A stretch of DNA of 46,219 nt from a virus (lineage: Duplodnaviria > Caudoviricetes). Shown in pieces: positions 1,160-44,170 of this stretch (the stretch's first letter is position 1; every line of letters starts with the position of its first letter). Location: the IMG/VR virus record IMGVR_UViG_3300011337_000466, positions 1-46,219 of that record; one strand, written 5' to 3'. The notes under the pieces are model-generated. The model did not search any database and was not told where the DNA came from. It was given only the letters and a program-made list of their open reading frames with translations. A program made the position numbers and the translations under genes.

Positions 1160-1269
1160 GAGATGCACTGAGCACTGGTATGCTGTGCATAAAAGCTTCT
1201 GGTGGAACCGAATCAGCGTCCTCATTACACTCGGTTCAAGGTGTAATATACCAGTATTCAATGCACCTC
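1160..1269 (-). ncRNA. Structured RNA element A (22-bp closing helix, two inner hairpins with complementary loops)
   Basis: Arms 1160-1181 and 1248-1269 pair, with G-U wobbles favouring the minus strand. Inner loops GAACCGA and UCGGUUC are complementary. Confidence 0.65.
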
Positions 1270-1285
1270 GTTGATAATGTTCTAC

Positions 1286-1363
1286 TTAAACTAACTTACC
1301 TATTGTAAATACTAAATAAATAACAAGTGCTATAAAAATAATTCCAAAAGTTACATCATTCAT
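1286..1363 (-). CDS. 25-aa hydrophobic single-TM peptide
   Basis: Manual translation MNDVTFGIIFIALVIYLVFTIGKLV*; same orientation as its neighbours. Confidence 0.45.
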   Translation of the reverse strand: MNDVTFGIIFIALVIYLVFTIGKLV

Positions 1364-1381
1364 ATATTCCTAATTACTAAG

Positions 1382-1720
1382 CTAATAATGCTTCATCACA
1401 CCTTTTATACTACCATTCTTAACCATTGGGTCAAGACGACTATCCACACATTTCATTCTGTAAAATATATTAGCAAGTTTCTTATATTCATCAGACATTG
1501 GCGGCTCGTCAACATTAGGAAGACCATCAAATTTCGTGTGGTCCTCCATAATTTTTAAGGCGTATTCCATACCAGCAACAAAGCACGCCTGAGATGTTGT
1601 AGACCATACCCATTTCGGTTTCTCAAACTCATACATCTTATTCTTCATCATTACCCAGATGTACTTCTCGTAATTTATTTGTGAATTTAATATTCTAAAA
1701 AGTGTTTTTGGAACTACCAT
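1382..1720 (-). CDS. hypothetical protein
   Basis: 112-aa ORF abutting the upstream gene; no recognisable motif. Confidence 0.7.
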   Translation of the reverse strand: MVVPKTLFRILNSQINYEKYIWVMMKNKMYEFEKPKWVWSTTSQACFVAGMEYALKIMEDHTKFDGLPNVDEPPMSDEYKKLANIFYRMKCVDSRLDPMVKNGSIKGVMKHY

Positions 1721-1722
1721 AT

Positions 1723-2553
1723 TTATTGTGATGAGTACATAAAAGGAACCTTAATACCTTCTGCTAGTCGTTCTTCATGAGTCTTCCCACCAAATTTATA
1801 ATCGTCTTTAAATGCAACCCAGTACCAGTCTGATTTGTCATACTGCATGTTTTTAAAGTAAATACCGTCTAGCTTAAAAGCTTTCCTGACACCAGGTAGT
1901 AGTAAGGCAAGCATGATTAGTTTCTTATACTTACGTGTTTGCAAAAATACACCTGGCCTCTCCCTTGATTCCATAATATCAAACAACCTTGATATTTCTT
2001 TCCTTGGGTTTCTCTTAAGATTATCAAGATTACATTCTGTTGCCATATCTTGTAACCTGGACCGGTAAGCATCATCATATTCTATAATATGCGCTATAGA
2101 ATAAGCAACCTCTTCTGCGAGATCTTCTTGCAAATAATTCGCAAGTATTTTCTCCAACAACTTATAGAAGTTATATGACGCATGACACATGTACTGTCTC
2201 TTAACCATAAATGAAAAGAAACATCTCCTGAAAAACCAGATAAAGTTTTTTGCTAGTTTTGTTGGGAACAGAAATACTACAGGGAAGCTTGTGTATTGTC
2301 GTAGCATTGATTTAACCATGTTAATAGCGTGTATTCCTTCTGGTCTTGGGAATACTTTGTGTGGGTATTCAGCGTTCTCTATATGTACAAGACAACCAAC
2401 ATACGGGACAAGTTCAAACTTTAAAGTATTGAAGAATATAACTTCGTCACCAATAACAAAGTCTGTTTGATTGAGGTAATACTCTTGTGGTATCCCCATT
2501 TCATTAAAGACAGAATCTCTGTCCTTTTCTTCTACTTTTGTCATGTGTTTCAT
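1723..2553 (-). CDS. hypothetical protein
   Basis: 276-aa ORF tightly packed in an operon. Confidence 0.8.
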   Translation of the reverse strand: MKHMTKVEEKDRDSVFNEMGIPQEYYLNQTDFVIGDEVIFFNTLKFELVPYVGCLVHIENAEYPHKVFPRPEGIHAINMVKSMLRQYTSFPVVFLFPTKLAKNFIWFFRRCFFSFMVKRQYMCHASYNFYKLLEKILANYLQEDLAEEVAYSIAHIIEYDDAYRSRLQDMATECNLDNLKRNPRKEISRLFDIMESRERPGVFLQTRKYKKLIMLALLLPGVRKAFKLDGIYFKNMQYDKSDWYWVAFKDDYKFGGKTHEERLAEGIKVPFMYSSQ

Positions 2554-2555
2554 AA

Positions 2556-3410
2556 TTATAATAATTCTTCGACTTCTATGTCTATTTGTCCTTTCTTATA
2601 AATTACGAGTGCCGCTAGGAATGCCTTAGAGTGCTTATCAAAGTCATACCTAGCATCTACTTCAAAATCATTTCCTTTCTTGCCTGATCTTATAACGACA
2701 GCTCCAACAATATCCTTGTCATACCCCATCTCGTTCCATGCCAACCAGTAAGCTGCACACTGATGGAAGTAAGAATCACCGTAGATACCTGAACTTGTTT
2801 TGAAGTCAGCCATGTATTTCTTACCATTGACCTCTAAAAGTAAGTCAAAACTACCAGCATAGAAATACTTCTTACTAACAGCACTCATTTCACTCTCTAG
2901 GAACTTAACGTGATCCATGGGAGCTAGATTGATGGAGTTCTTGTCGTAAGTATTTGCTTTTAGTCGTACAGGAACTCTACCGTTACACCAGTCTACAAAC
3001 GGCTGTAGTATCCCGTGTAAGTCTTTGTCATCTGGTAGAGCTGGTATATTCTTACCTTTAATGTGAGCCTTGGCGTATTCCTCTACCCATGCGTGAGCTT
3101 GTGTACCGATATCCATAGCTTCACCAGAAACACGCTTAGATGCCCAGTCTTTATTTTCTAGTATGCGTTCTATTTCATATCTATCTTTATCGAGGCAGTC
3201 TTCATAAGCAAGCTTGATGGCCCATTCTGTTACTTGTGGCTTAGCCACTACGTTCAGTATAGTTGTTACACCAGTGACAGACTTTCCGTTTAGTAGATAA
3301 CGCTTCTTGCCACCTTCCTTTGGTCTGAACTCTAGTATATCCACATCCCCGTTCTCATGTATCATCCGTGTCTCGATGACATCGTCTTTTTCGGTTTTAA
3401 TTATCTTCAT
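2556..3410 (-). CDS. PD-(D/E)XK (Cas4/exonuclease-like) nuclease
   Basis: SVTGVTTIL, GTQAHAWVE, YAGSFDLL...MADFKTS and HQCAAY motifs. Confidence 0.85.
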   Translation of the reverse strand: MKIIKTEKDDVIETRMIHENGDVDILEFRPKEGGKKRYLLNGKSVTGVTTILNVVAKPQVTEWAIKLAYEDCLDKDRYEIERILENKDWASKRVSGEAMDIGTQAHAWVEEYAKAHIKGKNIPALPDDKDLHGILQPFVDWCNGRVPVRLKANTYDKNSINLAPMDHVKFLESEMSAVSKKYFYAGSFDLLLEVNGKKYMADFKTSSGIYGDSYFHQCAAYWLAWNEMGYDKDIVGAVVIRSGKKGNDFEVDARYDFDKHSKAFLAALVIYKKGQIDIEVEELL

Positions 3411-3451
3411 GTGTATATCTTACCACGAGTGGAGTTACGGGGTGTGAATAA

Positions 3452-4180
3452 CTATAAGAATGAATTTAATTCAGTGTCGTTTGTTAATACTTTGACTGGC
3501 GCAACCTTAGATTGTATAAGTCGTATAGTAGAATACCTACGAGAAAACGCCCCGAGGTTCATTGCAAACTTTTTATCGGGCGAAACAGCTAAAGCATCTA
3601 TCTTTAATTTAATCTCATCGAGCGGGTGAAGCGAAAGCAGGTGGAGCGCAGTCTCTTTCGTTCCTTTCATGAATCTCAGCTTAGACGGTGTTTCAGGTGA
3701 TATTTTTTCATAGAAGTATAATACGACTGCTTGCCAGTCGCTAACATATGAGTTTATATCTGGTTTCTTATCTGTGTTTATATCTGGTATAGGTTCGCAA
3801 ATTTCTGTAGATGCATTCGCAAATTTTGCGGATGGAGTTACAGTTTTTGGCGGTTGGATTTCCATAACTTTATAAACTGAGTTTTTACACCCGTCAGTCG
3901 TATACCACTTAGTTCGGTCATACTTAAACTGGTTATAGTTCCCAGACATAATATACCCAGCTTTCTCTAACTTATCCAAGTAGTTATACACAGATCTTTC
4001 CTTCCAATAAGGAAACAATTTAGCAAAACTACCAGCTGAATTATAAGTCCACCATCTTCCATCATGGAAGTGTTTTTCCTCACCATTAGCACGGTTCTTC
4101 TTTACCCAGAATTGTATGTTACTGAGAAGAATCGCACACTCAACACCTAGCTCAACAGCTATGTTTTCGTCAAAGTTCAT
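3452..4180 (-). CDS. phage replication initiator (winged-HTH, DnaD/replisome-organiser type)
   Basis: A..LGVECAILL..I.FW..KN, DGRWWTYNS...LFPYW, GNYNQFKYDRTKWYT and EPIPDINTD motifs. Confidence 0.8.
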   Translation of the reverse strand: MNFDENIAVELGVECAILLSNIQFWVKKNRANGEEKHFHDGRWWTYNSAGSFAKLFPYWKERSVYNYLDKLEKAGYIMSGNYNQFKYDRTKWYTTDGCKNSVYKVMEIQPPKTVTPSAKFANASTEICEPIPDINTDKKPDINSYVSDWQAVVLYFYEKISPETPSKLRFMKGTKETALHLLSLHPLDEIKLKIDALAVSPDKKFAMNLGAFSRRYSTIRLIQSKVAPVKVLTNDTELNSFL

Positions 4181-4203
4181 ATTAAATTAACTAACTAATA
4201 AGT

Positions 4204-4330
4204 TAGCCAAAAAGTATAGATGTACACAATTCTTTTGCGCCCCACCCTCTTTGTAAGTAGGTAGGTTGCAAAAGATACAAAGATAACCTTTCGGCTACCG
4301 ATAGTATATCACATTATACTCTTCCTGCAA
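4204..4330 (-). promoter_or_regulatory. promoter and structured 5' leader of the replication initiator
   Basis: TTGCAG-16-TATACT (4330-4303); nested stems 4288-4297/4204-4213 and 4268-4275/4231-4238. Confidence 0.55.
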
Positions 4331-4460
4331 AGATATCGTAAGCATCCTGCGCAATTGTTGTTAACCCAGAGAACTTCTCATTGAAGTTAACAAACTGCTG
4401 CCATAAACGATATAATCCGAAGTTGATTCCTGCCAAAAGCACAATAATTATTATTTCCAT
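4314..4460 (-). CDS. small membrane protein (48 aa), leaderless
   Basis: MEIIIIVLLAGINFGLYRLWQQF...; TTGCAT...TAGAGT promoter 6 nt before the ATG. Confidence 0.6.
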   Translation of the reverse strand: MEIIIIVLLAGINFGLYRLWQQFVNFNEKFSGLTTIAQDAYDIFAGRV

Positions 4461-4500
4461 ATCTTAACTCTATCACACCACAAAACTTATGCAAGGGATA

Positions 4501-4529
4501 ACTAAAACACCCCTTTAGGGTGCCTTAGT
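4501..4529 (-). terminator. intrinsic terminator
   Basis: GGCACCCT-AAA-GGGGTGTT hairpin followed by U residues on the minus strand. Confidence 0.6.
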
Positions 4530-4551
4530 GGTTGCGTATTAAAATTTATAA

Positions 4552-5019
4552 TTACAAGTTTACAATTCCGTTATTAAGGTTGTAACTTCCAACGGTAAAT
4601 GCTTGTGCGGTATTACCTGTTAGGTACATGGTATTAGATCCCAGAGCTGAAGCAGTAGTAGTTATTGAACCACCTATATATTGCGGATTAGCCCATGTGA
4701 CTCGAGGGAATACCTCATAAGTCCACGTCCAAGGTTTTGTAACTATTTCTTGCTTGATAATATTAATTGTGATAGGAAACACCCTGTCACATCTTTCGTC
4801 ATTTTCATGTCGTTCCTTAACCTTATCAAGTCTCCCAGCCTTAAAGTCGTCGATGTCTTGTTTGAGTAACTTAATCTCCTCATCAAGTTCATCTCTCTCT
4901 TCCTCAAGGTCTTTCTTCTTTTGTAAAATTTGCTTAATTGTTTGCTTAAGCTGAGCAATAGATTTTTCTTCAATCTCTTGTTCGGCGGATTGAAATGCCT
5001 CTTTGTATTTGTTTGTCAT
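4552..5019 (-). CDS. coiled-coil hypothetical protein, monocistronic
   Basis: 155 aa with heptad-rich N-terminus; has its own TTGACA/TATAAT promoter and terminator. Confidence 0.8.
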   Translation of the reverse strand: MTNKYKEAFQSAEQEIEEKSIAQLKQTIKQILQKKKDLEEERDELDEEIKLLKQDIDDFKAGRLDKVKERHENDERCDRVFPITINIIKQEIVTKPWTWTYEVFPRVTWANPQYIGGSITTTASALGSNTMYLTGNTAQAFTVGSYNLNNGIVNL

Positions 5020-5124
5020 ATTTTTTAGTTGTTTTGTAACGCAACCGGTAACATTATAACATATTATATTTTTATGTCAATAAATACATTGACTTTATTT
5101 TAATATATTGTGATACTATATATA

Positions 5125-5535
5125 ATGAGAGTTGTCAAGATTAAGACACTGGAAGGCAGAATATGGAAGTTATGCAGAGCAATCATACGAACTAAATATG
5201 GTATTGACAAATGTTTTATATGTGGTGATGAAGTGACTGATTTGAAGAAGCTACACACAGCACACTTGTTTAAGAAAGAAACACTACCACTACAATTAAA
5301 ATATTCATTAAGAATCTTGAGGCCGTGCTGCTACACATGCAATAGATCTCGCCATGGTAATGAGGGCTGGTTTGTTGTTCGTCTTATAGAAGAAGAAGGA
5401 CTAGAGTATTTGAATCATATCATATATGATATAAGAAATTTGGAAGATATAACATCTACTCCTGTTAAACGTGAATTCCTCTTGGAATTAGAGCAACAAT
5501 ATGTTACATTACTTTCTGTTCTCACCAGAGGATAG
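5125..5535 (+). CDS. NinG/Rap-like HNH-fold nuclease
   Basis: CFICG...AHL...RPCCYTCN...HGN zinc/HNH pattern; ATG at 5125 directly after the -10 box. Confidence 0.75.
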   Translation: MRVVKIKTLEGRIWKLCRAIIRTKYGIDKCFICGDEVTDLKKLHTAHLFKKETLPLQLKYSLRILRPCCYTCNRSRHGNEGWFVVRLIEEEGLEYLNHIIYDIRNLEDITSTPVKREFLLELEQQYVTLLSVLTRG

Positions 5536-5554
5536 CAACACCTGCCAACTAATC

Positions 5555-5589
5555 TTGACAGGTGTTCGTCTTTATGGTACATTAAATAG
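5555..5589 (+). promoter_or_regulatory. sigma70-type promoter giving a leaderless endolysin mRNA
   Basis: TTGACA-17-TACATT, then 6 nt to ATG 5590. Confidence 0.7.
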
Positions 5590-6138
5590 ATGAAAGACGT
5601 ATCTTTGTTGCTACCAAAAGTACAAGAAATGACTAGAGTTTTTCTCAATAAATGTAAGTCTGCCGGTTACAATGTAATTATTACATCAACATTTAGGGAT
5701 GAAAATGAACAAAACGCTCTCTACGCACAAGGCAGAACATCTCCTGGTTCTGTTGTTACTAATGCTAAGTTTGGTGATTCTTTACACAACTACAGGGTAG
5801 CTATCGACTTCGCCCCTGTTGATGCTCAAGGGAATATTCCTTGGAATGATAAAAAGTTATTTATGAAAATAGCTGACATTGGTGTGAGTTGTGGTTTTGA
5901 AGCTGGGGCTTACTGGACATCATTCCTTGATCTCCCTCACCTACAATACACCGCAGGGTATTCTCTACAAGATTTCAAGGATAATAAAGTTGATTATTCT
6001 AAGTTCAATACAGAACAAAATTATGTAGAAGAGTTTGTTAAAGCATTAAATAAATTTCAGGAATCTGAAGGAATCTCACCAGCAAGAAAGATAGGACCTA
6101 AAACAACTTTATCACTTAAGAAATACGGATTATTATAA
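5590..6138 (+). CDS. endolysin, peptidase M15 (L-Ala-D-Glu type) with C-terminal PG-binding-like segment
   Basis: FR...EQNALYAQGRT.PG.VVTNA..GDSLHNY..AIDF and DLPHLQ motifs; FQ...GI....IGPKT tail. Confidence 0.92.
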   Translation: MKDVSLLLPKVQEMTRVFLNKCKSAGYNVIITSTFRDENEQNALYAQGRTSPGSVVTNAKFGDSLHNYRVAIDFAPVDAQGNIPWNDKKLFMKIADIGVSCGFEAGAYWTSFLDLPHLQYTAGYSLQDFKDNKVDYSKFNTEQNYVEEFVKALNKFQESEGISPARKIGPKTTLSLKKYGLL

Positions 6139-6139
6139 T

Positions 6140-6406
6140 ATGGAACCAATAACAACGGCAACAATCGTAAGAAGTTTTGCAGGATTAATAATGAGTGAGA
6201 ACCTATCACCAAGAAGGAAGCAAGCTCTTGTGATAGGGATATCAATAATATTTTTCCTCGCAGCTCAAGTAGCGTCAGGGAATTATTCAACAAAAGAGTT
6301 GTATCAATCATTGCTTGAAGGGTGTACTGCTGGCCTATCAGCAATAGGTATGTATGAGTTTACCAAGAAGGGTGTGGACAAGACATCTGTACAAGATATT
6401 GGATAG
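6140..6406 (+). CDS. holin
   Basis: Small hydrophobic protein directly after the endolysin; GLSAIGMYE resembles phage holins. Confidence 0.75.
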   Translation: MEPITTATIVRSFAGLIMSENLSPRRKQALVIGISIIFFLAAQVASGNYSTKELYQSLLEGCTAGLSAIGMYEFTKKGVDKTSVQDIG

Positions 6407-6426
6407 AGTGTACTATTCCGAAAGTA

Positions 6427-6438
6427 GTTCTTTAACAA
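6427..6438 (+). promoter_or_regulatory. boxA-like antitermination site
   Basis: GTTCTTTAACAA matches the boxA consensus (GCTCTTTAACA) and is preceded by a small hairpin (ACTAT-TCCGAAA-GTAGT). Confidence 0.55.
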
Positions 6439-6533
6439 GTGGTGGACAGATGGGGGAGAAATTGACTCAATAATATAGGTGTTTATCACACAAGCGTGGG
6501 AGTCCTAGAAACGCTTCCCCGCCTGTCCATCAC
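6439..6533 (+). ncRNA. Structured RNA element B (17-20 bp closing helix, inner hairpins)
   Basis: GTGGTGGACAGATGGGG pairs with CCCCGCCTGTCCATCAC; inner AAGCGT/ACGCTT hairpin; GACTC/GAGTC complementarity. Confidence 0.6.
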
Positions 6534-6545
6534 AAAGGAGCCGTA

Positions 6546-6815
6546 ATGGCCAAAGGTCACAACCTACGTGAAATGCAAGATGAGTACAAGGAATCCATCG
6601 TTGGACTGTGCCTCATCTGTAGCAAGCCGTGCCATGGTTGGTACGCACGATTCGATAATGCTGGTGTGTGCTCTAAGAAGTGCATGCACGAACAGGACAA
6701 AAAACCTAAATATCCAGGCTACACAGAGGAGGAGTACTTCGCTCGCCAAGGGGAAACCTTTTGCGATTCGTCCTTTCAACTCGATGGAGGTGATGATGGA
6801 AGTCCTGACGGCTGA
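6546..6815 (+). CDS. small Cys-rich (zinc-finger-like) protein
   Basis: CLICSKPC...VCSKKC; strong SD AAGGAG. Confidence 0.75.
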   Translation: MAKGHNLREMQDEYKESIVGLCLICSKPCHGWYARFDNAGVCSKKCMHEQDKKPKYPGYTEEEYFARQGETFCDSSFQLDGGDDGSPDG

Positions 6816-6972
6816 TGACGGGTCTTTCGCACTCGTCTTCTCGAAGGAAGAGAAAGAGCTTGGCCTTGCAATCTTGGAGAACTTCACCGCAACTACCAAG
6901 CAAGGTGAAGAGAACCTCAACGATGCAAAGTCGAGGATCATCATGGCTGGTGAGAGCTTGACTGCTCAATAG
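6796..6972 (+). CDS. hypothetical protein
   Basis: GGAGG SD at 6786-6790 before ATG 6796; corresponds to the 3' part of ORF 6568..6972. Confidence 0.6.
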   Translation: MEVLTADDGSFALVFSKEEKELGLAILENFTATTKQGEENLNDAKSRIIMAGESLTAQ

Positions 6973-6981
6973 GAGTGAATC

Positions 6982-7284
6982 ATGATCGCAAAGAAGTTCC
7001 GTGCGGTGGCGTTCGTGGCGTGCCTGCCGTTCATCCAAGCACACGCCTTCAACCCTGACCTCGACCTCAACGGGTCGTTCGTCAAGAGCGAAGGCCAGTG
7101 CAAACACGAGAAGCGGGTCTACAAGTGCTTCATGCTGGAGAAGGATGCCATCAACTACATCGTGGCACTCGACTCCGAAGGGGTGCTCGCCGTCTGGATG
7201 GTGAAGGAAGTCAAGGACTCCTACACCGAAGGCGAGATGAAGCTGATGTGGCAACGCCAAGGGCGAAGGAAGGAAGACGTGTGA
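6982..7284 (+). CDS. secreted protein with signal peptide
   Basis: MIAKKFRAVAFVACLPFIQAHA signal with A-H-A cleavage motif; AGGAG SD. Confidence 0.75.
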   Translation: MIAKKFRAVAFVACLPFIQAHAFNPDLDLNGSFVKSEGQCKHEKRVYKCFMLEKDAINYIVALDSEGVLAVWMVKEVKDSYTEGEMKLMWQRQGRRKEDV

Positions 7285-7463
7285 TGCTTCTTCTTGAAAC
7301 CGCCATCGAACGTACAGGGAAGGATGATCTCCAGTTCTTCCAAACCGCCTACATGTACAAGTACGGCAAGTACTACGATGTGTGGGGAGATGTGCTTGCG
7401 TGGAGAACGCAGAAGATCGTCCCCAACTATGTCAAGGAATACCTCAAGTATCTCTACGACTAG
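7284..7463 (+). CDS. hypothetical protein (59 aa, Tyr-rich)
   Basis: TGATG coupling to the upstream gene; MLLLETAIERTGKDDLQFFQ... Confidence 0.65.
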   Translation: MLLLETAIERTGKDDLQFFQTAYMYKYGKYYDVWGDVLAWRTQKIVPNYVKEYLKYLYD

Positions 7464-7466
7464 AAT

Positions 7467-7537
7467 GGCAGTGTAGTTTAAGCGTAGTAAAACCCTCCGA
7501 AAGGAAAGATGTGGCCCTTACACCACCACTGCCGCCA
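7467..7537 (+). ncRNA. tRNA-like RNA lacking an anticodon arm
   Basis: GGCAGTG/CACTGCC acceptor stem plus G-CCA; TA linker; GTTT/AAAC D-stem; TCC-GAAA-GGA in place of the anticodon arm; GTGG/CCAC T-like arm. Confidence 0.7.
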
Positions 7538-7558
7538 GCCTCACAAGGGCTGGTTTTT
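7535..7558 (+). terminator. intrinsic terminator
   Basis: CCAGCC-TCACAAG-GGCTGG-TTTTT. Confidence 0.8.
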
Positions 7559-7625
7559 GTTTTGTCCACAGTTTTACCTTTGATATTTTACAAAAATAAT
7601 TATACTAGTTGTAGTCGAAAGACAT

Positions 7626-7979
7626 ATGAAATTACAACTACCATTTTCCAAGAAAGAGTTTGAACGATTACAAATAATGCACAGATTAGAAGTTGATAGG
7701 TTTAATAGAATTCTACCAGAGGATCACACGAAGAAAAAAGCTCAAGCAGAGGTTGTACTAAATATTGTTGACCAATTATACAACAATATAAACAAGGACT
7801 ATTATAACAAATACGCTAAGAATGTTTGTAGGTTTGGTCACTTTGAAGACACAAAAGAAGTATGTGAGAAGAAGTTTAAAAACACTCTTGCAAACTATGT
7901 TTCAAACGGCAATTGTTGTAAAAGTTGTAACTCAGTAATTTTAAATAGAATGAAAAACATATGTACAGAATTAATATAG
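7626..7979 (+). CDS. hypothetical protein with Cys/His motif
   Basis: CRFGH...CCKSC zinc-binding-like pattern. Confidence 0.65.
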   Translation: MKLQLPFSKKEFERLQIMHRLEVDRFNRILPEDHTKKKAQAEVVLNIVDQLYNNINKDYYNKYAKNVCRFGHFEDTKEVCEKKFKNTLANYVSNGNCCKSCNSVILNRMKNICTELI

Positions 7980-8164
7980 AATTATTAAACGAAAGAGGTG
8001 ATGAGTTGCTAAACAAGCAGCTTAAAATTCCAACACTTGACGGGATACTTGATACCGATCTTGCTCTTCTCTATGCAGAAGCTCAACAAAATGAGTTATT
8101 CGACATAGACCAAGTACCTGAATACGATGAGACCGAAAACTACAGGGAGTCTACTGATCTTTAA
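7961..8164 (+). CDS. small acidic hypothetical protein
   Basis: 67-aa D/E-rich ORF overlapping the previous gene. Confidence 0.6.
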   Translation: MYRINIELLNERGDELLNKQLKIPTLDGILDTDLALLYAEAQQNELFDIDQVPEYDETENYRESTDL

Positions 8165-8316
8165 CATATAATAAAATTATGTCAAGTATAAAAACAGCTT
8201 GACAATTTAAAATAAATACAGTTGACAAAATCAATAATTTGTTTTATTGAAAATCAATTGTTACACTAACTATGGAAGTTCATTTAACGCCGAAAGGCAT
8301 CAATAAGGAGTTCACC

Positions 8317-9486: not shown

Positions 9487-9489
9487 GGT

Positions 9490-36843: not shown

Positions 36844-38565
36844 TTAGTTTTTTGCAAAAATCGCATCTAAAACACCGATCGGTTTAACTACTTCTATTTT
36901 TTCTGTTGATCCTTGCAAAACGGCTACAGCAATAGCCCATGAGATAACAACGTCGTCGTTAGAACCAACGCTGGCTTGTGGTTTACCACGTTTATCACGC
37001 ACAAAGGTAAGTATTTCATCAAGTAATGGACGACAATTAATCATCTCTGTAGAGTTAAAATGCTTCTTAGCTTCACCCAACATAAAGTCACGATTTTTCT
37101 TGTTTGTCAACCATCCGTATGACTGAGTTGGTTCTTTGGTAATGCGATCTATTTCAGTGCGTATGTAGATGTTTGGGTAGCCTGAGTTACGCACCTCGGT
37201 GTTAACCCAGTTACCATCTTTGTTGAACTCTATTGCCAAGAGCGCATTATTGTAGCGCTTACCGAGTGCCATGATAAGTTGTGAAAACTCATCAGGTTCA
37301 ATATGTCCACGATACAATGCTTTTACTTGTTTGTCAAATCCAAGTACAACAGCTACTGTATAGTCTCCGTTCAGTAATCCTTCTGCAACGTCAGCGCCAA
37401 TAACATATTTTCTGCCAGGACGCACATTATCATAAATATATAAATCACCCTTGTCGTCTTTCTCGAAGTTACCATTAATAAATGAATACCGTTGGTAGTT
37501 ATTATCACATCTGTCTAAGAATGCAGCAGCCTTGCGTGATGAGAAGTATGGTGAACCTGAAGAAAGAAATGCTTCCATCGGATGTGTCGGGTACTCTTGA
37601 TGGAGTTTGTCGATGTCCTTGTTAGCATTGATGTACTTCAAATAATAGAAGTTCATCTCTTTGTCAGAGAGTTCGTTTTCTTCTTGATACTCCTTCCAGT
37701 TTATTTCACACTCTTCCATCTCGTGAACCTGTATAATTCCATCTAATGCAGCCGCTTCTATTTCTTCGGTATCCCACTTCCAGTTATAGAAAGCTGTTTT
37801 GAAGTGTGCTTTTGAAAGTGCTGGGGTTACTGTATCCCTGATCTTCCACGCTGGCATAAAGATGTCATAAAACAATCCACTGGCCCCTTCTGCGGTAGAT
37901 TCTATAATAGCTTGACCTCCTATAGGAATAGCGGGAAGTGTTCCTGTTACTATTTCCTCAGCGCGACCCTGATAGAGTTTAGCAAGCTTACCCAACTCAG
38001 AAATGTGAACACCCACAGAGAAAGTACCAGAGCGTGCGGAGTTAGACACACCAATAGCAGAGACACTACCATCAGGGTAAGAAAATTGCTGACGTGAGGC
38101 CTTAGCTTGCGACATGTCGAGGATTCCTTTAAGAGCTGGACAAAAGTTTTTGATTGCATAAATAATTTTACGATTAAAGATCTCGTTAGCGTCTTTGAGA
38201 GTATGCGCAATCTGTAGCGCTTCTGAGTTCGGTCTAAAAATAACTTGGTCTAGGAAGTATAAACTAATAAGTGTTGTGAAGCCAAGCTGTCGTGATTTTA
38301 ATATTGCTATTTTCTTATATCCTGCTGCTAGGTAATTCTCAAAGAAGTGAAGTTGAGGTTTGTTTAATTTGAATAATGCCTTTCTTCCGTCTTTGGTCAT
38401 TATGTAGTACAAATGCTGAAGACGCCACAACGTAGCGTCCTTGGAGATGAATGTATTGAAATGAAACGTAATCAAATAGTCTACCTGTAAGTCTATTGGT
38501 AGGTTTTTAACAATTACTTTCTTACCGTCAAGTTCGGTTTGTACATTGAGTAGGGAGTCGATCAC
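36844..38565 (-). CDS. terL: terminase large subunit
   Basis: ILKSRQLGFTT Walker A, HISE Walker B, IIESTAEG, IGADVAEG, AIEFN and NDDVVIS nuclease motifs; probable leaderless GTG start at 38565. Confidence 0.95.
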   Translation of the reverse strand: MIDSLLNVQTELDGKKVIVKNLPIDLQVDYLITFHFNTFISKDATLWRLQHLYYIMTKDGRKALFKLNKPQLHFFENYLAAGYKKIAILKSRQLGFTTLISLYFLDQVIFRPNSEALQIAHTLKDANEIFNRKIIYAIKNFCPALKGILDMSQAKASRQQFSYPDGSVSAIGVSNSARSGTFSVGVHISELGKLAKLYQGRAEEIVTGTLPAIPIGGQAIIESTAEGASGLFYDIFMPAWKIRDTVTPALSKAHFKTAFYNWKWDTEEIEAAALDGIIQVHEMEECEINWKEYQEENELSDKEMNFYYLKYINANKDIDKLHQEYPTHPMEAFLSSGSPYFSSRKAAAFLDRCDNNYQRYSFINGNFEKDDKGDLYIYDNVRPGRKYVIGADVAEGLLNGDYTVAVVLGFDKQVKALYRGHIEPDEFSQLIMALGKRYNNALLAIEFNKDGNWVNTEVRNSGYPNIYIRTEIDRITKEPTQSYGWLTNKKNRDFMLGEAKKHFNSTEMINCRPLLDEILTFVRDKRGKPQASVGSNDDVVISWAIAVAVLQGSTEKIEVVKPIGVLDAIFAKN

Positions 38566-38647
38566 TTGTTTATAATAACACATTTATAAATTTTGTACAG
38601 TCTAGCTTGACTACTTATTTTGTGATATGATATAATGTTTTTACAAA

Positions 38648-38915
38648 TGTATATTAGTTTGGGTTTTGAGTGAGGCGGTAGGAAAGACCTCACTATAATA
38701 AAGAGTATATAAGCACTATAGGTACGCGCCACCTCACCTAGAGTAAGAGAAAACCTTATGTACGACGATCCGCAGGTGACATCAGAAACTATTACCAAGC
38801 TATCTCTTAAACAATGCTTGGGGAAACTTATACTTCGGCTCCGACAAAGGTAACCATAAGAATAGGAACAAACACCTTGGGTATGAAAATATCATGGTGC
38901 CAAACGAACTATACA
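38648..38915 (+). ncRNA. putative ~270-nt structured RNA divergent from terL
   Basis: TTGACT-18-TATAAT promoter (38607-38636); 5'/3' closing pairs; several internal stems; no credible ORF. Confidence 0.55.
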
Positions 38916-39051
38916 CACATAAAATTTTTAAAAGCACTGGTGGTGTAGCCTTTTTCTTTCCTTCTCACCAACAAAGGGCTTATAAAATAAGGGTTAAACA
39001 GAGACAACAACACAAATTGAGGTTTCGACCAAACTTTGCTATCATATTACT

Positions 39052-39285
39052 ATGAATAAAATAAAGTTTAACAAGATGAAAGAAAACGAAAGAGCCTTGT
39101 TTAAATTTTGTTATGAAAATGAAATACACTTCGATCAATACAATATGTACCATTACCGCCTATTCTACAAAGGTAATATACTAGATGTCTGGCCAGTGAG
39201 CCGTAAATATTGGAACAATAAAATGAGTTGCTCACGGGTTTACAAAAAGGTTTCTGACATTAAACCATACATACTGATCGATTGA
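39052..39285 (+). CDS. hypothetical protein (leaderless)
   Basis: YHYRL...LDVWP motif; TGcTATCAT 6 nt upstream. Confidence 0.7.
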   Translation: MNKIKFNKMKENERALFKFCYENEIHFDQYNMYHYRLFYKGNILDVWPVSRKYWNNKMSCSRVYKKVSDIKPYILID

Positions 39286-39314
39286 CAAACTAGCCAAATA
39301 TTGTATAATGTATA

Positions 39315-39418
39315 TATCAACGCACTTACATTGTGAGGAATGCAGAGATACGAACAAGAGCTTTTGCTCTTTTTTCGTTAATGGTTACATATGATTACCA
39401 CCTTTACGGGTGGTTTTT
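39315..39418 (+). ncRNA. putative ~100-nt small RNA
   Basis: TTGACA-16-TATAAT promoter, two hairpins, and terminator ACCACC...GGTGGT-TTTT. Confidence 0.45.
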
Positions 39419-39441
39419 CATGTGTTATCATATGCAAATAT

Positions 39442-39512
39442 CGCGGGGTAGAGTAGAGGTAACTCACGAGGCTCATAACCTCGGGACACAGGTTCGATTC
39501 CTGTCTCCGCTA
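39442..39512 (+). tRNA. tRNA-Met(CAT), initiator type
   Basis: Full cloverleaf with CTCATAA loop and TTCGATT T-loop; C1:U72 mismatch and A11-U24; no encoded CCA. Confidence 0.92.
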
Positions 39513-39513
39513 C

Positions 39514-39828
39514 ATGAAAGATCTAATAATCAAGAGTTACTTTTACCTCAACCAAGGAGTCTCAGTCCTTAACCAGTTTCGTAACTTATTCCTAGCAGTA
39601 TTTGGGGTGTACCTAACTCTTAAGTTGACAAATCCATTAAGTATGGTGGTGATGTTTTTAGTAAGTATTCCTATTTTAATAGCTGTTGGGTATTACAATA
39701 TTCATAAGGTAGCGAAGGTATCTGAACAGCTTAGTGTAAAACATGGGACGCATTATGGTATCAAACAGTTTGAGTTAATGGAAGAACAGGTGAGGTTATT
39801 GAAGGAGATTAAAGAGAAGCTTTCTTAA
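39514..39828 (+). CDS. two-TM membrane protein
   Basis: Two hydrophobic helices; starts 2 nt after the tRNA. Confidence 0.75.
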   Translation: MKDLIIKSYFYLNQGVSVLNQFRNLFLAVFGVYLTLKLTNPLSMVVMFLVSIPILIAVGYYNIHKVAKVSEQLSVKHGTHYGIKQFELMEEQVRLLKEIKEKLS

Positions 39829-39997
39829 GCTTACTAGCACTCCTAGTAACCCCATACTTTTTAACAATATTATATATTTGTCTTTCGGTGACTTTCCACT
39901 TAGTTGCGATGTCTTTAACTGTCATTTGCCGGCTGGTGTAGTTACCTATAATATCTTTCTCGGCTCCGATGATGCCGTACAGAAATGTTTTATTCAT
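39809..39997 (-). CDS. small HTH DNA-binding protein
   Basis: TVKDIATKWKVTERQIYNIVKK helix-turn-helix. Confidence 0.75.
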   Translation of the reverse strand: MNKTFLYGIIGAEKDIIGNYTSRQMTVKDIATKWKVTERQIYNIVKKYGVTRSASKLKKASL

Positions 39998-40250
39998 ATA
40001 AGTAATATAACATACCTTTTTCGAAAATGGTAGTGGGTGGTGTTACGGACTGTACAGGATTCTTTTTTCTTTTTGTATGGGTAGGGGTTAAGAAAGGGTG
40101 GTGGCGGGGGTCGTGTTTTGCATTGACATTTCTAAAAGTTATTGTGCTATATGAAGAACAATACCACTAGTATACATAGTATGTCAATATGAAATCATAG
40201 AGTAACAATATCTATTTGACGACTCTAAAGAATTTGACTGTTATTGCTGT

Positions 40251-40691
40251 CTATTTTTCTTCTTCAATATCCTCCTTGTCTTGTAGTACTTCCTGCACCT
40301 GTGACGCATTCTGTGCCCATGCAGTGCGTGTTACATTGCCGTTCTTGTCCGTTGATTCTTTGAGTGTGACTTTAGGTGTGAGTGCTGTGTATATTGCTGT
40401 GAGGTTTTTACCTATTCGTGACGCTGTTTCAGCCATAACTAAGTCTTTTGGCTCTTTTTGTAGTGCTTCGTTCACTATTTCCTGCACAATAAACAAATTA
40501 GTGTTGTTTTTGTCAAGTATCTGCTTTTGTACGATAGCGTAAGTCTTTGTATTCTCGATAAGTGATGGTCTGCGTGATGTTGTTTCGCTGTAGCCTGCCA
40601 CTAGTGCGCTCTCCATCTTGTTTGCTCCCGCTAATCTATTGTGTATATATTCCGTAACATTTTTTTGTGCATCTTCCTGTGAGTGCTTCAT
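40251..40691 (-). CDS. terS: terminase small subunit (probable)
   Basis: NKMESALVAGYSETTS resembles the A..AGYS motif of TerS. Confidence 0.65.
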   Translation of the reverse strand: MKHSQEDAQKNVTEYIHNRLAGANKMESALVAGYSETTSRRPSLIENTKTYAIVQKQILDKNNTNLFIVQEIVNEALQKEPKDLVMAETASRIGKNLTAIYTALTPKVTLKESTDKNGNVTRTAWAQNASQVQEVLQDKEDIEEEK

Positions 40692-40775
40692 ATCTGATAA
40701 CTATACCACATAAATTGTTATTACACAACAAAAAACACCACTGTCAAGCGGTATTCTTTGTGCAAATAATTCGCA

Positions 40776-40934
40776 TTATATATTTTCTAATGTAACCTTG
40801 TATTTATTCTTGTCTATCGTAAAAGTCCACTCAAATACACTATTAACGTCTTTGTCTATAATCTTTCCTTTGACATACTTTCCGCCGCTATTGTATATCA
40901 AGTCATCAATCAATTCCTCCATGTGTTTTGTCAT
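40776..40934 (-). CDS. hypothetical protein
   Basis: ATG 40934 with AATAAT context. Confidence 0.6.
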   Translation of the reverse strand: MTKHMEELIDDLIYNSGGKYVKGKIIDKDVNSVFEWTFTIDKNKYKVTLENI

Positions 40935-40957
40935 ATTATTCTTGCGAATGATTCGCA

Positions 40958-41146
40958 TTATATAAACGCTTTTACTGTTTCAGAAAGTTGATAATTATTA
41001 TATTCCGCTACTCTCTTCGCATGGTCAACAGCTTGATTAAGAGCTATAAACTTTTCTAGCTTTCTATGATGTTCTCCGTATGCTGTCTGCATAATCATCA
41101 TAGTGTAAAAATACTTCCTTTGTTTTTGTATTGTTATTTTTGTCAT
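40958..41146 (-). CDS. hypothetical protein
   Basis: 62-aa ORF in the small-gene cluster. Confidence 0.6.
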   Translation of the reverse strand: MTKITIQKQRKYFYTMMIMQTAYGEHHRKLEKFIALNQAVDHAKRVAEYNNYQLSETVKAFI

Positions 41147-41354
41147 AGTTTTATTAGTTATATATAATCATTCTTCCTTAACCACTCCACACACACCCAC
41201 AACCCGTACACTGATAACACTATTTGTACAGCTATTGACATACTAGTAAGGTTTTATTTGTATAAGTGTCCAGCAGTTCAAATTCTTGCATGTCCCTGTG
41301 TTAAGATACCCACAATACTCACATTGTTTGATGTTTAAGTTGTTGATATTCATA

Positions 41355-41819
41355 TTAGTTTTTTACTACATAGTCCTGTAACTGTACAATAGTCTGTTCA
41401 ACAAGATTGTCATAATACACCGCACACGCTTCACTAATAGAGCTACAGCCGTATTCCTCCATATAAGACATGATATCACTTTCGTTGAACATGTTCAGAT
41501 ACTCAAGGCGGACAGATGTATATATACTAGCGAAGCCATCTCGCTCTAGCTCTTGCATAACCTCGTACACCTCCATGTCGATAAACTTTTCTAATGTAAT
41601 GTCATTATCAGCGAGAAAAGCCACAGCATCATATAATACATCATAATTTAGATTATTATCACCAGAAGCAATACCATCATCGCTGTAAACTAAGTTGACC
41701 AGAAAGTCCTTAAGCTCTCCGCTTTCTAACTTGATATAAGTATAATAATCCTCCTTACCCTCATTTCTCTCTTTCCTGTCCATGCTATCTAGTAGCATTG
41801 TGTATGTTTCATTAGTCAT
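41355..41819 (-). CDS. highly acidic protein, Ocr-like DNA-mimic candidate
   Basis: About 33 D/E versus about 10 K/R in 154 aa; ASIYT..RLEYL segment; early-type gene cluster. Confidence 0.55.
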   Translation of the reverse strand: MTNETYTMLLDSMDRKERNEGKEDYYTYIKLESGELKDFLVNLVYSDDGIASGDNNLNYDVLYDAVAFLADNDITLEKFIDMEVYEVMQELERDGFASIYTSVRLEYLNMFNESDIMSYMEEYGCSSISEACAVYYDNLVEQTIVQLQDYVVKN

Positions 41820-41932
41820 TATATTTGTAATTAGTATTATTTTTGTAACATTCCTCATCTAACGCGCAACCGCCCCACATAATCACCCATAATCCTACGA
41901 GTAGCAATATAGCCGTTATAAGTTGTTTCATA

Positions 41933-42130
41933 TTATTGATATAAATTAGCGTAATGCTTCATTATTTCGATACGTCTATTTACTTTTCTAACGTACTCTT
42001 GTAATACTTTGTCACCGCTTTCATTTGCTATTTCTTGCATTGCACACTTTGCCATGATTATAAAGTTGTGTGCTGTCTGATCATTTGTATAATGCGTGGC
42101 AATATTATATTTTGTTATTGTATTTTTCAT
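41933..42130 (-). CDS. hypothetical protein
   Basis: 65-aa ORF. Confidence 0.6.
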   Translation of the reverse strand: MKNTITKYNIATHYTNDQTAHNFIIMAKCAMQEIANESGDKVLQEYVRKVNRRIEIMKHYANLYQ

Positions 42131-42232
42131 GGTTATTTAATACCTCTCATCATTACCTTAGCTATTAAGTCCCCCTTAGTCATTACACGCGCCCGCATTT
42201 CCTTGTAGTGTTGCTCTTTTGTTTTGTACATA

Positions 42233-42598
42233 TTAGATAGTAGCTAGCATACCCTGTAATTCAAGCATTGTGTCTTTGAGTGGTGAAGACTCGAGTGTAA
42301 ACAACTCGCGCCCTTGTGCTTGCTGTCTCTTTTGTTCCTGTGTAAACTCCTCCGCTAATCTATCCGCATACTTCGCAAGCATTGAGTCATACAAAGCTAG
42401 TTTTTTATCGCTCCATCTTGATGGCTTAATACTTAACCCTGTACCAGTAAACATCACTATACTTGTGAAATTGCCCTTTTTTTCTGTCGGCTGTATATTG
42501 ACATGATATCTTTTTGTAAACTCATTTTTTCTTCCTTCTATTAGTAGATACTTTTCTTCTCCGTTATCTAACTTTTGTATATTATATTTTTTAACCAT
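42233..42598 (-). CDS. hypothetical protein, first gene of the small-gene cluster
   Basis: 121 aa; promoter-like TTGCTT...TAGACT upstream. Confidence 0.7.
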   Translation of the reverse strand: MVKKYNIQKLDNGEEKYLLIEGRKNEFTKRYHVNIQPTEKKGNFTSIVMFTGTGLSIKPSRWSDKKLALYDSMLAKYADRLAEEFTQEQKRQQAQGRELFTLESSPLKDTMLELQGMLATI

Positions 42599-42764
42599 AT
42601 GTTTTTAATTATATGAGTGCCCCCAAGCTCTCATGACTCCAGTCTACATCTCATAAGCATAAAAGCAAGAAAAGTTATACACACAATAATGCAACACAAA
42701 ATAGCACATGTCAATGTGCTTATTCTATAAGTGTTTTTATTCTATTTTACTTTACAAACTAAAA

Positions 42765-42817
42765 ACTTGTTTTAACAAGTAGAACTTGTTCTACGCGTAA
42801 GAGCAAGTCTTACTTGC
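42765..42817. repeat. cluster of ACTTGY/RCAAGT inverted repeats
   Basis: Five copies forming overlapping palindromes. Confidence 0.6.
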
Positions 42818-43227
42818 TATAGTTTCTCATCAAACACCCCGAGCAGTATCATATTGTTATTAATGAAATCTTGCAGTGTTCTTGGCTTATCTTCACTGTT
42901 TCGTATCTCATTAACTAACTCTATAAGTCCTGCTTCAAAGCTACTTGGCAACGGTCTACTAGTATCTTGACAATACTGCCAAAGTGTTGCCCCATTAGTA
43001 ACACCTCTACACCACACATCTATCAAATCGTCAATAGTATATATCGGCATTTTAGCACTCAATAATTCTGTCACTCTGTCAATAGTATTATTCGCAACAA
43101 TGTCCTTCATATCCTGCTCAGTAAAAAAAGGACTTGGAATTTCTGGGATTGATCTAATAGGCGATTCAGAATTTGAATTTTGGTTCGGATCAGATTTGGA
43201 TTTTTTGTTAGGATTTTGTTTTGGCAT
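42817..43227 (-). CDS. hypothetical protein
   Basis: Probable start MPKQNPNKK at 43227. Confidence 0.7.
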   Translation of the reverse strand: MPKQNPNKKSKSDPNQNSNSESPIRSIPEIPSPFFTEQDMKDIVANNTIDRVTELLSAKMPIYTIDDLIDVWCRGVTNGATLWQYCQDTSRPLPSSFEAGLIELVNEIRNSEDKPRTLQDFINNNMILLGVFDEKL

Positions 43228-43423
43228 GTTTTTCTTTTTCAATGAGCGCTTCGTATCGAGATAGTAGTCTCTCGGCTTCTTGGAAATGCTTGAGCGATTC
43301 ATTACCTTTGGTTGCTCTCGCTATTCTTAAATGTTTGTTAACATTCTTTTGTCTTCGTAATGCTTGGTAGTGTATGCGTTGGTATTCTTTAATTTTTTCT
43401 GGTGTTAATGTTTCTTTATTCAT
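43208..43423 (-). CDS. small basic helical protein
   Basis: 71-aa ORF. Confidence 0.65.
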   Translation of the reverse strand: MNKETLTPEKIKEYQRIHYQALRRQKNVNKHLRIARATKGNESLKHFQEAERLLSRYEALIEKEKHAKTKS

Positions 43424-43606
43424 ATTAGAACTTTATTACAGGCAGCCTACTATCGTGGATCCACTGTAGTGCTGTGTTGATTGCTTTCTTTAATGATTCT
43501 GTCATATTTCATAGGTAGCCACTTATGTTTTATCGGATCTGGTTCTTCGTAAAAAGGACTTAACTTCCAATCATCAGTGGCTGATTTAGCGTCGTAATAA
43601 AGTGGA

Positions 43607-44011
43607 TTAGAACGGTGGTTCGTCTTCTCCTGCTGGGTTGCTGGGAATTTGTGTTGGTGTTTGTGGTTTATATCCCTCCCTTAACCCACCAAGACTAGCC
43701 ACCGCATTCCTTAGTTGCATAATTTCTACTTCAATAGCAGATACCCGCATCGCAAGTTTATCTTCTGCCTTTGGTACCTCGTAGTTTAAAAAGTCACCGT
43801 TTTGTTTTACAATAACATCAACTTGATCTCCTTCTTTCCAGTTCTCGTTCTCACGTCCCTTGAATCCTGATAGCCACTTGTCTCCGTATTCTACACACTT
43901 CACAGACAACTTAGAATAAGGCTTACCTAACTTACTCATAAGTGGTGTGCCGTCTTTGTTTTTATCAGTTACGAAGACACGTGTTAATGTTATTTTGGTG
44001 ATTTGATTCAT
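43607..44011 (-). CDS. OB-fold single-stranded DNA-binding-like protein
   Basis: GKPYSKLSVK...WLSGF...WKEGDQV strands and an acidic-aromatic tail EDEPPF. Confidence 0.6.
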   Translation of the reverse strand: MNQITKITLTRVFVTDKNKDGTPLMSKLGKPYSKLSVKCVEYGDKWLSGFKGRENENWKEGDQVDVIVKQNGDFLNYEVPKAEDKLAMRVSAIEVEIMQLRNAVASLGGLREGYKPQTPTQIPSNPAGEDEPPF

Positions 44012-44038
44012 GTTATTTATTTTGTTTGTTTTAGTATC

Positions 44039-44170
44039 GGAGAAACACTGGTGAAGAGAGGCTAACCTCAGCTGTACAATTGGCAGTCCTAGTTTAACAT
44101 GTTCTTATCTAGCCCAATTGCTAGGAACTCATGTAACGTGTTAGTTAGTCCCCTCCATCAGTGCTTCTCC
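44039..44170 (-). ncRNA. Structured RNA element C (~27-bp closing helix, two inner hairpins with complementary loops)
   Basis: Arms 44039-44066 and 44144-44170; loops AAUUGG and CCAAUU. Confidence 0.65.

Follow-up and report, generated by a model that had tools for sequence, protein, structure and literature searches.

Three intergenic elements in the genome of a tailed phage raise the question of what long RNA helices placed immediately ahead of genes have in common, and what they might do. The window, meaning the whole stretch of DNA analyzed, spans positions 1–46,219 (46,219 nt) of IMG/VR virus record IMGVR_UViG_3300011337_000466 (Duplodnaviria; Caudoviricetes). An ordinary large terminase is present in the window phage, and the best match in a search of cultured phages is to a terminase, at 34%. 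The host is probably one of the ultra-small bacteria, Patescibacteria, an assignment based on a single contig at 48% identity; the bin concerned (G023) carries a relative of the ssb-like gene described below, belongs to the Patescibacteria, and encodes RNase III, the sole such bacterial bin among the matches listed. Relatives were compared in an incomplete sample of metagenomes and genomes, and counts of relatives are lower bounds.

Three long helices ahead of genes

The elements, designated A, B and C, and their neighboring genes are as follows.

376..1134, minus strand: N6/N4 DNA methyltransferase gene, downstream of A
1160..1269, minus strand: element A, with a 22-bp closing helix and 66-nt interior (cargo), 25 nt before the methyltransferase gene
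1160..1171, minus strand: outer frame of A, 3' strand of the shared 12 bp
1258..1269, minus strand: outer frame of A, 5' strand of the shared 12 bp
6439..6533, plus strand: element B, with a 17–20-bp closing helix and a cargo of about 60 nt, between the holin gene and an 89-aa ORF
6537–6540, plus strand: GGAG upstream of the 89-aa ORF
6546..6815, plus strand: 89-aa ORF downstream of B, of no known family
43607..44011, minus strand: 134-aa OB-fold, ssb-like gene downstream of C (model pLDDT 82.6)
44039..44170, minus strand: element C, with a 21-bp closing helix plus extension and a cargo of about 90 nt, exchanged in relatives

The positions and long closing helices given by the initial annotation are borne out. 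Folding z-scores on the gene strand are -5.2 (A), -4.9 (B) and -4.3 (C), none of 200 shuffles doing as well, and these are the only non-coding stems in the window scoring at least 17; across 20 Markov copies of the window, stems of at least 18.4 number three in all. The next ATG is 25, 12 and 27 nt away, respectively, within the 12–28 nt first described, and the reported wobble bias towards the transcribed strand is also seen, the G-U:A-C ratios over the outer 17 bp on the gene strand being 3:1, 2:1 and 2:1. All three are genuine helices that exceed chance expectation and favor the transcribed strand. Long helix-stems are moreover a habit of the phage group: 35 of the 48 top stems lie outside ORFs, where ORF-free sequence is 18%; 17 stems have an ATG no more than 40 nt away on just one side, and 15 of these show better pairing on the gene strand, with 54 G-U against 14 A-C. 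As the initial annotation had supposed, A, B and C match no described Rfam family; a search of the window at E up to 5 returned a tRNA-Met and one chance snoRNA, and nothing else. For the ssb-like product the OB-fold/SSB matches are weak and do not reach E 0.001; a listing of its relatives comprises 466.

Related frames and exchangeable interiors

The initial annotation described the three elements as unrelated in primary sequence, but their closing helices are alike, sharing 18 (A and C), 16 (A and B) and 14 (B and C) of the outer 24 letters. Among 351 pairs drawn from 27 other phage stems, 1 and 7 reach the first two likenesses; B–C kinship taken alone is not significant, with 27 null pairs equally alike. 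In six copies of the outer 12-bp frame 93% of cells are paired and 4 of the 12 pairs are compensatory, with none of 500 shuffles equal, and a seed profile built from these copies and run on 27 stems of other phages recovers one further member, with 11 of 12 pairs. A G-U at base pair 4 is retained in six of seven copies, and an A-C mismatch at base pair 12 is conserved. Three pattern scans of viral contigs returned four loci (two known, two chance), 11 loci (two known, one new, L104, and eight chance as judged by fold) and three loci (one chance). The pattern has no match in 401 Patescibacteria genomes, the frame does not resemble any of nine host 16S stalks in its letters, and neither L104 nor the G007 element matches Rfam. 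By this comparison a single helical frame occurs in three copies, as A, B and C, and it is in the closing helix that conservation and covariation lie.

The interiors behave differently. Three long interiors of unrelated sequence are known at site C, besides a short-hairpin form, and those of relatives include one of 110 nt. Among the records listed as carrying site C none is an RNA dataset, which has no bearing on expression. In three relatives the long helix is replaced by a hairpin of 6–8 bp. In one relative (L014) the interior follows the arm order of YrlA (T arm, closed acceptor arm, D arm), and the long helix stands where an anticodon arm would be; the D and T loops are intact, and there is no anticodon or CCA end. 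It scores 32.8 bits (E 0.0026) against YrlA (RF02553), below the 69-bit cut-off, and 24 related records yielded no match above the cut-off and one weak match. Matches to this cargo in host genomes (63 of 401) are confined to the T arms of ordinary tRNAs, and no such permuted tRNA-like domain is found in the A, B or C cargos. Site A has two known interiors: an otherwise unrelated phage has the two arms of A and 40 nt of flank in common with the window, and carries a different cargo within that frame. In a contig of run X18 the outer 12 bp of A are kept exactly and position 1171 is joined to 1258, either directly or through different letters; the comparison that returned this contig gave no coverage of B. 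When the A, B and C interiors were searched against their own genome for trans targets, the longest match listed was 12 nt, at chance level. The closing helices are related, and their interiors are exchangeable.

Such exchange could arise at the DNA level, with short inverted repeats serving as exchange points and the interiors being near-neutral filler. The unrelated phage sharing the flank and arms of A fits this account, as does the mixing of short forms and cargo types across phage lineages at site C; it is nonetheless quite improbable, given that G-U pairs are biased to the gene strand, that the frame carries compensatory changes, and that the tRNA-like cargo keeps its D and T loops.

The interpretation of the initial annotation is partly supported, and its emphasis is inverted: the helices are kin and the interiors vary. 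It had proposed a class of RNAs with one topology, two inner hairpins and complementary, covarying loops, perhaps oligomerizing. Interlocking loops of this kind are drawn for phi29 pRNA and the SRP Alu domain. The complementary words quoted, and the AGGA..CUG..CAG words, are present in the sequence. The best case is in A:

1205..1237, minus strand: 7-nt complementary pair in A, with 1237–1231 in the loop of a 7-bp hairpin and its partner at 1211–1205

Against 150 shuffles per interior, loop complementarity stands out in A, where all seven letters are perfect (p 0.007), and does not in B (0.093) or C (0.139); it exceeds shuffles in 2 of 29 other long stems of related phages, and other cargos in the same frame do not have such loops (C014, p 0.97; G007, p 0.72). 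In ViennaRNA ensembles, whose model does not extend to the kiss itself, the B words GACUC/GAGUC form an ordinary nested helix (probability 0.97) and the CUG/CAG hairpin is given at most 0.01 in A and in C; opening both loops costs 5.1 (A), 5.0 (B) and 2.8 (C) kcal/mol before any kissing energy. Both C loops contain a palindromic CAAUUG, a point in favor of the kissing-loop model. Loop covariation is not seen: the single C variant (run X18, one contig at depth 2.3) has three of the six loop 2 letters altered, plus insertions, and its loop 1 is the same as in the window. Resemblance to phi29 pRNA or the Alu domain extends only to the topology drawn for A; loops are not conserved at the same site, no SRP Alu match in Rfam or conserved loop-loop pseudoknot was found, and the elements are not adjacent to packaging genes. 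Of all the explanations weighed, a kissing-loop family is the least probable, and the pair in A is a possible pseudoknot or kiss private to that cargo.

A proposed processing stem and its alternatives

We lean, cautiously, towards the frame being a host RNase III-type processing stem around exchangeable RNA cargo, which was among the three mechanisms first offered and is the best reading of these elements. The enzyme would cut the phage transcript within the frame, 10–14 bp above the helix base, so that the cargo would come free as a separate small RNA and the next gene would gain a new 5' end; at C, it would also release a 60-nt 5' leader piece. The simplest account of cargo swapping would be recombination between co-infecting phages via the shared arms. 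Three relatives do not have the long helix at site C, and a cut there would thus be dispensable.

The helix lengths of 20–22 bp agree with what is required of RNase III sites, described as a helix of about 22 bp with a minimum of 11 bp on one side of the cut (PMC1540722, PMC6212723). On the in vivo E. coli RNase III matrix (PMC6212723 Table S4) A, B and C score -25.0, -25.5 and -26.9, inside the -33.8 limit and near the -25.5 limit given there; frames range from -24 to -27, and host 16S stalks score higher, from -18 to -22.6. The pair order is not distinguished from shuffled order on this matrix (p 0.19–0.80 singly, joint 0.29), a comparison of low power, since only two of nine host 16S stalks beat their own shuffle. 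The register of the frame on the matrix is ambiguous; in one of the two best registers the base pair 12 mismatch falls at a position with 0 of 85 A-C counts. RNase III substrates of E. coli and B. subtilis are reported to carry wobble pairs in the distal box.

T7 transcripts are reported to be processed by RNase III, and its early RNA stems (R1.1 and others) are likewise about two helical turns long, imperfect, located between genes ahead of a start codon, and present as several related copies per genome (PMC3867540, PMC8708148, PMC1540722). R1.1 is a 49-nt simple stem, whereas here the helix surrounds 60–130 nt of multi-branched cargo that is swapped between phages, and cleavage is predicted. 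Two other RNA systems were considered and rejected. TIGR-Tas stem-loops are described as tandem arrays that carry box C/D and come with a Nop-domain gene (PMC12045711), whereas these elements are single and dispersed, with Nop in none of five records; a retron or DGR RNA was set aside with RVT_1 in none of four frame-bearing or sister phages.

The frame might instead stay uncut, as a folding clamp or protein-binding site that displays the cargo in the mRNA leader and shields the message, like the Ro60-binding stem of Y RNA. Consistent with this are the sequence conservation of the outer 12 bp with its fixed mismatch, the YrlA layout of one cargo, and the non-significant RNase III sequence signature. 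We consider it unlikely: a Ro60 (TROVE) gene is found in none of the five records searched, and the YrlA Ro60-binding motif (GNCGAAN0-1G) is absent from the frames by inspection. The YrlA likeness is confined to the L014 cargo at site C, below the cut-off, and the cargos of the window are not tRNA-like. Helices of 20 bp are also hard to keep uncut in a cell that has RNase III.

Antitermination, another of the mechanisms first suggested, has local support at B.

6427..6437, plus strand: perfect boxA (GYTCTTTAANA), 1 nt before B and after a small GAAA hairpin

The elements would then be antitermination or co-transcriptional folding signals as in an rRNA leader, with boxA loading Nus factors ahead of the helix. 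This is the only perfect boxA in the genome, with 0.44 expected anywhere, and a relative (G001) has boxA with one mismatch at the same site. No boxA was found before A or C, however, and 32 stems are preceded by one perfect and two imperfect matches; the consensus is gamma-proteobacterial. Antitermination is very improbable as the general explanation, and would complement processing rather than replace it. Leader–trailer stalks and intervening sequences of rRNA do offer a parallel to the favored processing stem, with a long helix around structured RNA and boxA ahead of B; Patescibacteria 16S stalks are 25–37 bp, and short IVS-like inserts are described as common in CPR rRNA (PMC11270868). The phage frames differ in lacking sequence likeness to the host stalks, and in being located in mRNA leaders.

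The leader of C and a second promoter

The ssb-like gene has a promoter-proximal leader in which element C forms the third hairpin domain, and this leader has a predicted partner 1.6 kb downstream.

44226..44234, minus strand: predicted extended -10 box (TG-N-TATTAT) of the leader carrying C, kept in relatives
44208..44219, minus strand: predicted leader hairpin 1 (GGC-CCCUAA-GCC), its first 10–11 nt complementary to 42628–42619
44171..44207, minus strand: leader hairpin 2 and a conserved ACUUUWA-type linker before C; sequence differs among relatives, fold kept
42646–42641, minus strand: -10 of the second predicted promoter, just ahead of the hairpin at 42613..42634
42613..42634, minus strand: second-promoter hairpin (5 bp, 12-nt loop), 15 nt before ORF 42233–42598; putative antisense target

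Leader loop 1 and the second-promoter hairpin loop are complementary in all six genomes holding both sites, with one compensatory change (G002) and a U-G in the window. The gene behind the target hairpin differs between relatives, and an atlas search with the ORF at 42233–42598 returned no family. Contact between the loops as RNA is the fairly probable reading; a DNA operator could also account for the complementarity, although we find this rather doubtful.

Loop-loop antisense control is known from ColE1 RNA I/II and the c4 and CI RNAs of P1 and P4. As in c4 and CI, a small hairpin loop is complementary to the loop of a leader hairpin in the same replicon and on the same strand. The leader of C differs from all three in having a single 10–11-nt seed; it has no match to Rfam C4. 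The two pairing segments of the c4/CI type are not found, and bipartite pairing via the ACUUUUAG linker was rejected, with the second partner lying between the -10 and the predicted start, in untranscribed DNA. A resemblance between the leader loop and twister or pistol ribozymes was also rejected, with the rest of the core missing and no Rfam match. Separately, leader loop 1 could form an intramolecular pseudoknot with the base of C in MFE folds of four of six leaders cut at 60 nt, which is absent with the full helix.

The covarying loop-loop pair 1.6 kb apart is in no motif library, and the frames suggest looking for covariation in the closing helix rather than the loops. At its most speculative, and we regard this as doubtful, Patescibacteria phages would run modular small-RNA delivery, in which a shared frame is traded between unrelated phages and decoy cargos (a tRNA-elbow mimic, pseudoknots, twin-loop sponges) soak up host defence or RNA-binding proteins, while cutting at C releases a 5' antisense RNA, and this RNA silences the message of the second early promoter by loop-loop pairing. 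If the stems are cut as predicted, they would constitute a natural swappable small-RNA cassette in phages, each cargo being a candidate counter-defence or regulatory RNA; if the helix alone matters, they would represent mRNA punctuation of the T7 kind, now in another host group, the Patescibacteria, for which almost no phage RNA biology has been described.

Long-stem elements of the genome and its relatives

Three intergenic RNA elements, each folded on the strand of the adjacent gene and compared with shuffled sequences, are located as follows.

1160-1269, minus strand: element A, preceding a DNA methyltransferase gene
6439-6533, plus strand: element B, between a holin gene and an 89-aa ORF
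44039-44170, minus strand: element C, preceding an ssb-like gene

On the gene strand each folds better than all 200 of its 200 shuffles, and they are the only non-coding stems in the window scoring at least 17; in total, three such stems arose in 20 Markov copies of the genome. The initial annotation had placed each element shortly upstream of a gene and recognised no named motif, and both points hold: the ATG lies 25 nt (A), 12 nt (B) and 27 nt (C) past the element end, and an Rfam search gave nothing on any of the three. Identity with pRNA or the SRP Alu domain is rejected as Rfam gave no match, and a retron or DGR identity is rejected too, with a reverse transcriptase gene in none of four frame-bearing or sister phages. 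Of the 48 stems that score at least 17 in the fetched relatives, 35 fall in non-ORF sequence, which is 17.8% of the 786,705 bases; 32 of the 35 are distinct, three being repeats from near-identical genomes. Seventeen stems have a start codon within 40 nt at just one end, and 15 of these pair better on the gene's strand, with 54 G-U versus 14 A-C pairs on that strand in the 17; this gene-strand pairing and G-U excess point to RNA rather than DNA.

An 8-nt direct repeat, CAACGAGG, is present at the left edge of A and just 3' of it (1151-1158 and 1266-1273, minus strand), and overlaps the methyltransferase ribosome site, which the 3' arm of A could cover if the helix opens. A 25-codon hydrophobic ORF (1286-1363, minus strand) ends 16 nt upstream of A, and the flank following it is common to the window and phages G001 and G065.

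The window, a complete tailed-phage genome of 46,219 bases, encodes a terminase, helicase, exonucleases, endolysin, holin, and methyltransferases, and the nearest terminase among cultured phages is 34% identical. In two close relatives the terminase is interrupted past residue 547 by roughly 270 inserted codons (G005 C1 12623-15184 and L017 5117-7678), in G005 as a single open frame of 854 aa; the insert is likely an intein or homing element. The gene 3' of C codes for a 134-aa protein with a predicted OB-fold, and its SSB-like matches are all weak. The phage host is a putative one, because the call derives from a Patescibacteria bin, the single bacterial record with a relative of the ssb-like protein (48%) among the matches listed. 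The sole tRNA gene, tRNA-Met(CAT), is at 39442-39513 (plus strand), with nested hairpins ahead of it.

Complementary loops within and beyond the elements

Kissing loops had been proposed as a trait of all three elements. When each interior and 150 shuffles of it were searched for a pair of hairpins whose loops are complementary, only A stands out (p = 0.007; B, 0.093; C, 0.139); among 29 other distinct long stems of related phages, two pass at 0.05. The B loop pair forms a nested helix in the ensemble (0.97), and the CUG/CAG hairpin said to be shared by A and C is unformed (0.01 or less); the folding program cannot score kissing interactions. Nor does covariation emerge in C, whose sole cargo (interior) variant, one contig of run X18 at depth 2.3 with five of its six substitutions listed, alters three of the six loop 2 letters, with loop 1 unchanged among the listed changes; CUG and CAG are both altered and five letters added. 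The 7-bp loop pair of A is worth -9.0 kcal/mol as a free duplex and could repay the 5.1 kcal/mol cost of loop opening. No variants of its cargo were found in a search for them, and a pseudoknot or kiss may be real yet private to the A cargo.

A second loop complementarity involves the leader of which C is the third domain. The leader starts 7 nt past a predicted extended -10 box and opens with a predicted hairpin, GGC-CCCUAA-GCC; this and a second promoter-proximal hairpin 1.6 kb away have complementary loops (44219-44208 and 42634-42613, both minus strand). Counting G-U as a pair, the first ten letters of the leader have exactly one perfect same-strand complement in all six genomes or contigs with both sites, where chance predicts 0.12 per strand for the window (L014 and G024 hold a single site within the contig). 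In all six it falls inside the loop of a hairpin with a 5-bp stem, immediately past the second predicted promoter and 20-43 nt 5' of an ATG, and the gene that follows varies among relatives. The window pairing contains a U-G pair, and in phage G002 both loops are changed, the cognate duplex being worth -22.4 kcal/mol and crossed ones -17.6 to -21.1 kcal/mol. Support from the target stem is weak: one of its pairs is compensatory, and 31 of 500 shuffles score as high. A repressor site at the two promoters remains a rival explanation of the complementarity; these loops are the real candidate for a covarying pair, as a possible trans antisense pair or paired operators. Elsewhere in G002, about 400 nt of non-coding, multi-hairpin sequence 3' of a promoter-like site (L025 17400-17800) is possibly a larger non-coding RNA.

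The only perfect boxA in the genome (consensus GYTCTTTAANA, PMC5725501) is at 6427-6437, one base ahead of B (0.44 expected on both strands); there is none ahead of A or C. In G001 the boxA is kept at this position with one mismatch, and a shorter hairpin stands where B would be; ahead of them is a different, AU-rich 79-nt hairpin (L023 3720-3798), whose arms resemble the pairing segment of the C leader and its complement with one mismatch. From B onward, a small-ORF block (6400-8200, plus strand) differs from most of the genome in its GGAG ribosome sites and, by eye, in a higher GC content; it was possibly acquired as a module.

A shared helical frame with exchanged cargo

The elements had been described as unrelated in primary sequence, a view that the closing helices contradict. 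Of 24 outer letters, 18 are alike in A and C, a likeness that 1 of 351 null pairs reaches; the figure is 16 for A and B (7/351) and 14 for B and C (27/351). Six copies of these outer 12 bp, or frame (A, B, C, the A-type copy of G065, and the site C copies of L003 and L014), give the consensus G W G R W G S A Y W G A on one arm and Y C W G U S Y W U C W C on the other; pairing holds in 93% of 71 cells, versus 35-56% in slid controls. Four of 12 pairs are changed on both sides and none of 500 shuffles is as high, which is not a probability because the six copies are related. Among 27 stems from other phages, a profile built on these seeds picks one (G007 295-432, 11 of 12 pairs). A search of 401 Patescibacteria genomes did not find the frame.

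The interiors are exchanged between the arms. At site C, L003/L018 keep both arms 5' of the ssb-like gene around an unrelated interior, L014 keeps both around a circularly permuted tRNA-like domain, and interiors are replaced in runs X13 (173 letters) and X16 (58 letters); G001, G002 and L012/L013 have merely a 6-8-bp hairpin. At site A, G065 has the flank and arms of the window with a different cargo, and its proteome gave one weak match to the 28 window proteins tried; an X18 contig joins 1171 to 1258 with the outer 12 bp retained, and G001 is without A. Most simply, we infer, cargo is exchanged by recombination via the shared arms. In the mainly non-subscription literature searched, we found no account of phage leaders in which one processing frame is shared and its cargo exchanged.

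The L014 RNA (51-157, plus strand) has no anticodon loop or CCA end, and its T arm is identical to host tRNA-Asn genes across 23 nt. It reaches 32.8 bits (E = 0.0026) against the YrlA model, under the cut-off of 69. For the elements of the window a YrlA identity (PMC4201824) is rejected, with no GNCGAA motif in the frames and Ro60 in none of five records, as is TIGR (PMC12045711), with Nop in none of five.

The G065 cargo (L104 701-796, minus strand) has two hairpins with CUUACACA in both loops, a word we take to be boxA-like, and is possibly a protein sponge. In G007, a long helix (L059 8268-8367, plus strand) encloses a tRNA-like cloverleaf, tRNA-His by eye; its termini are like those of A, with 7 of 12 profile pairs, which is not significant. 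A chance-looking pattern match in G066 (L105/L108 701-803) lies in an AAC-rich tract adjoining a reverse transcriptase gene, with 12 nt at its 3' end in common with the 3' arm of A; the locus is probably a diversity-generating retroelement.

Candidate processing by RNase III

A similar layout, a two-turn imperfect helix just upstream of a gene, is described for RNase III sites of phage T7 (PMC3867540 and PMC8708148), and the Patescibacteria bin, G023, encodes RNase III. Scored on in vivo pair counts (PMC6212723 Table S4), the frames reach -24.0 to -27.2, inside the table limit of -33.8. The G-U at frame bp 4 would fall in the distal box, a location that favours wobble pairs (PMC1540722 and PMC11780869). 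Counting against RNase III, shuffling the order of the pairs gives as good a fit (p = 0.19-0.80, joint 0.29), and the registers differ by two or three pairs. Nine host 16S stalks outscore the frames (-18 to -22.6) and differ in look, though only two of the nine beat their own shuffle. On either side of Patescibacteria 16S genes (L091-L101) run 25-37-bp U-rich/A-rich stalks in which a core sequence recurs, and CPR rRNA often carries short inserts of the RNase III type (PMC11270868). The helices are therefore compatible with RNase III and not diagnosed as substrates. We lean slightly towards a role in which the frame helix would be cut by an RNase III-type enzyme and the cargo released.
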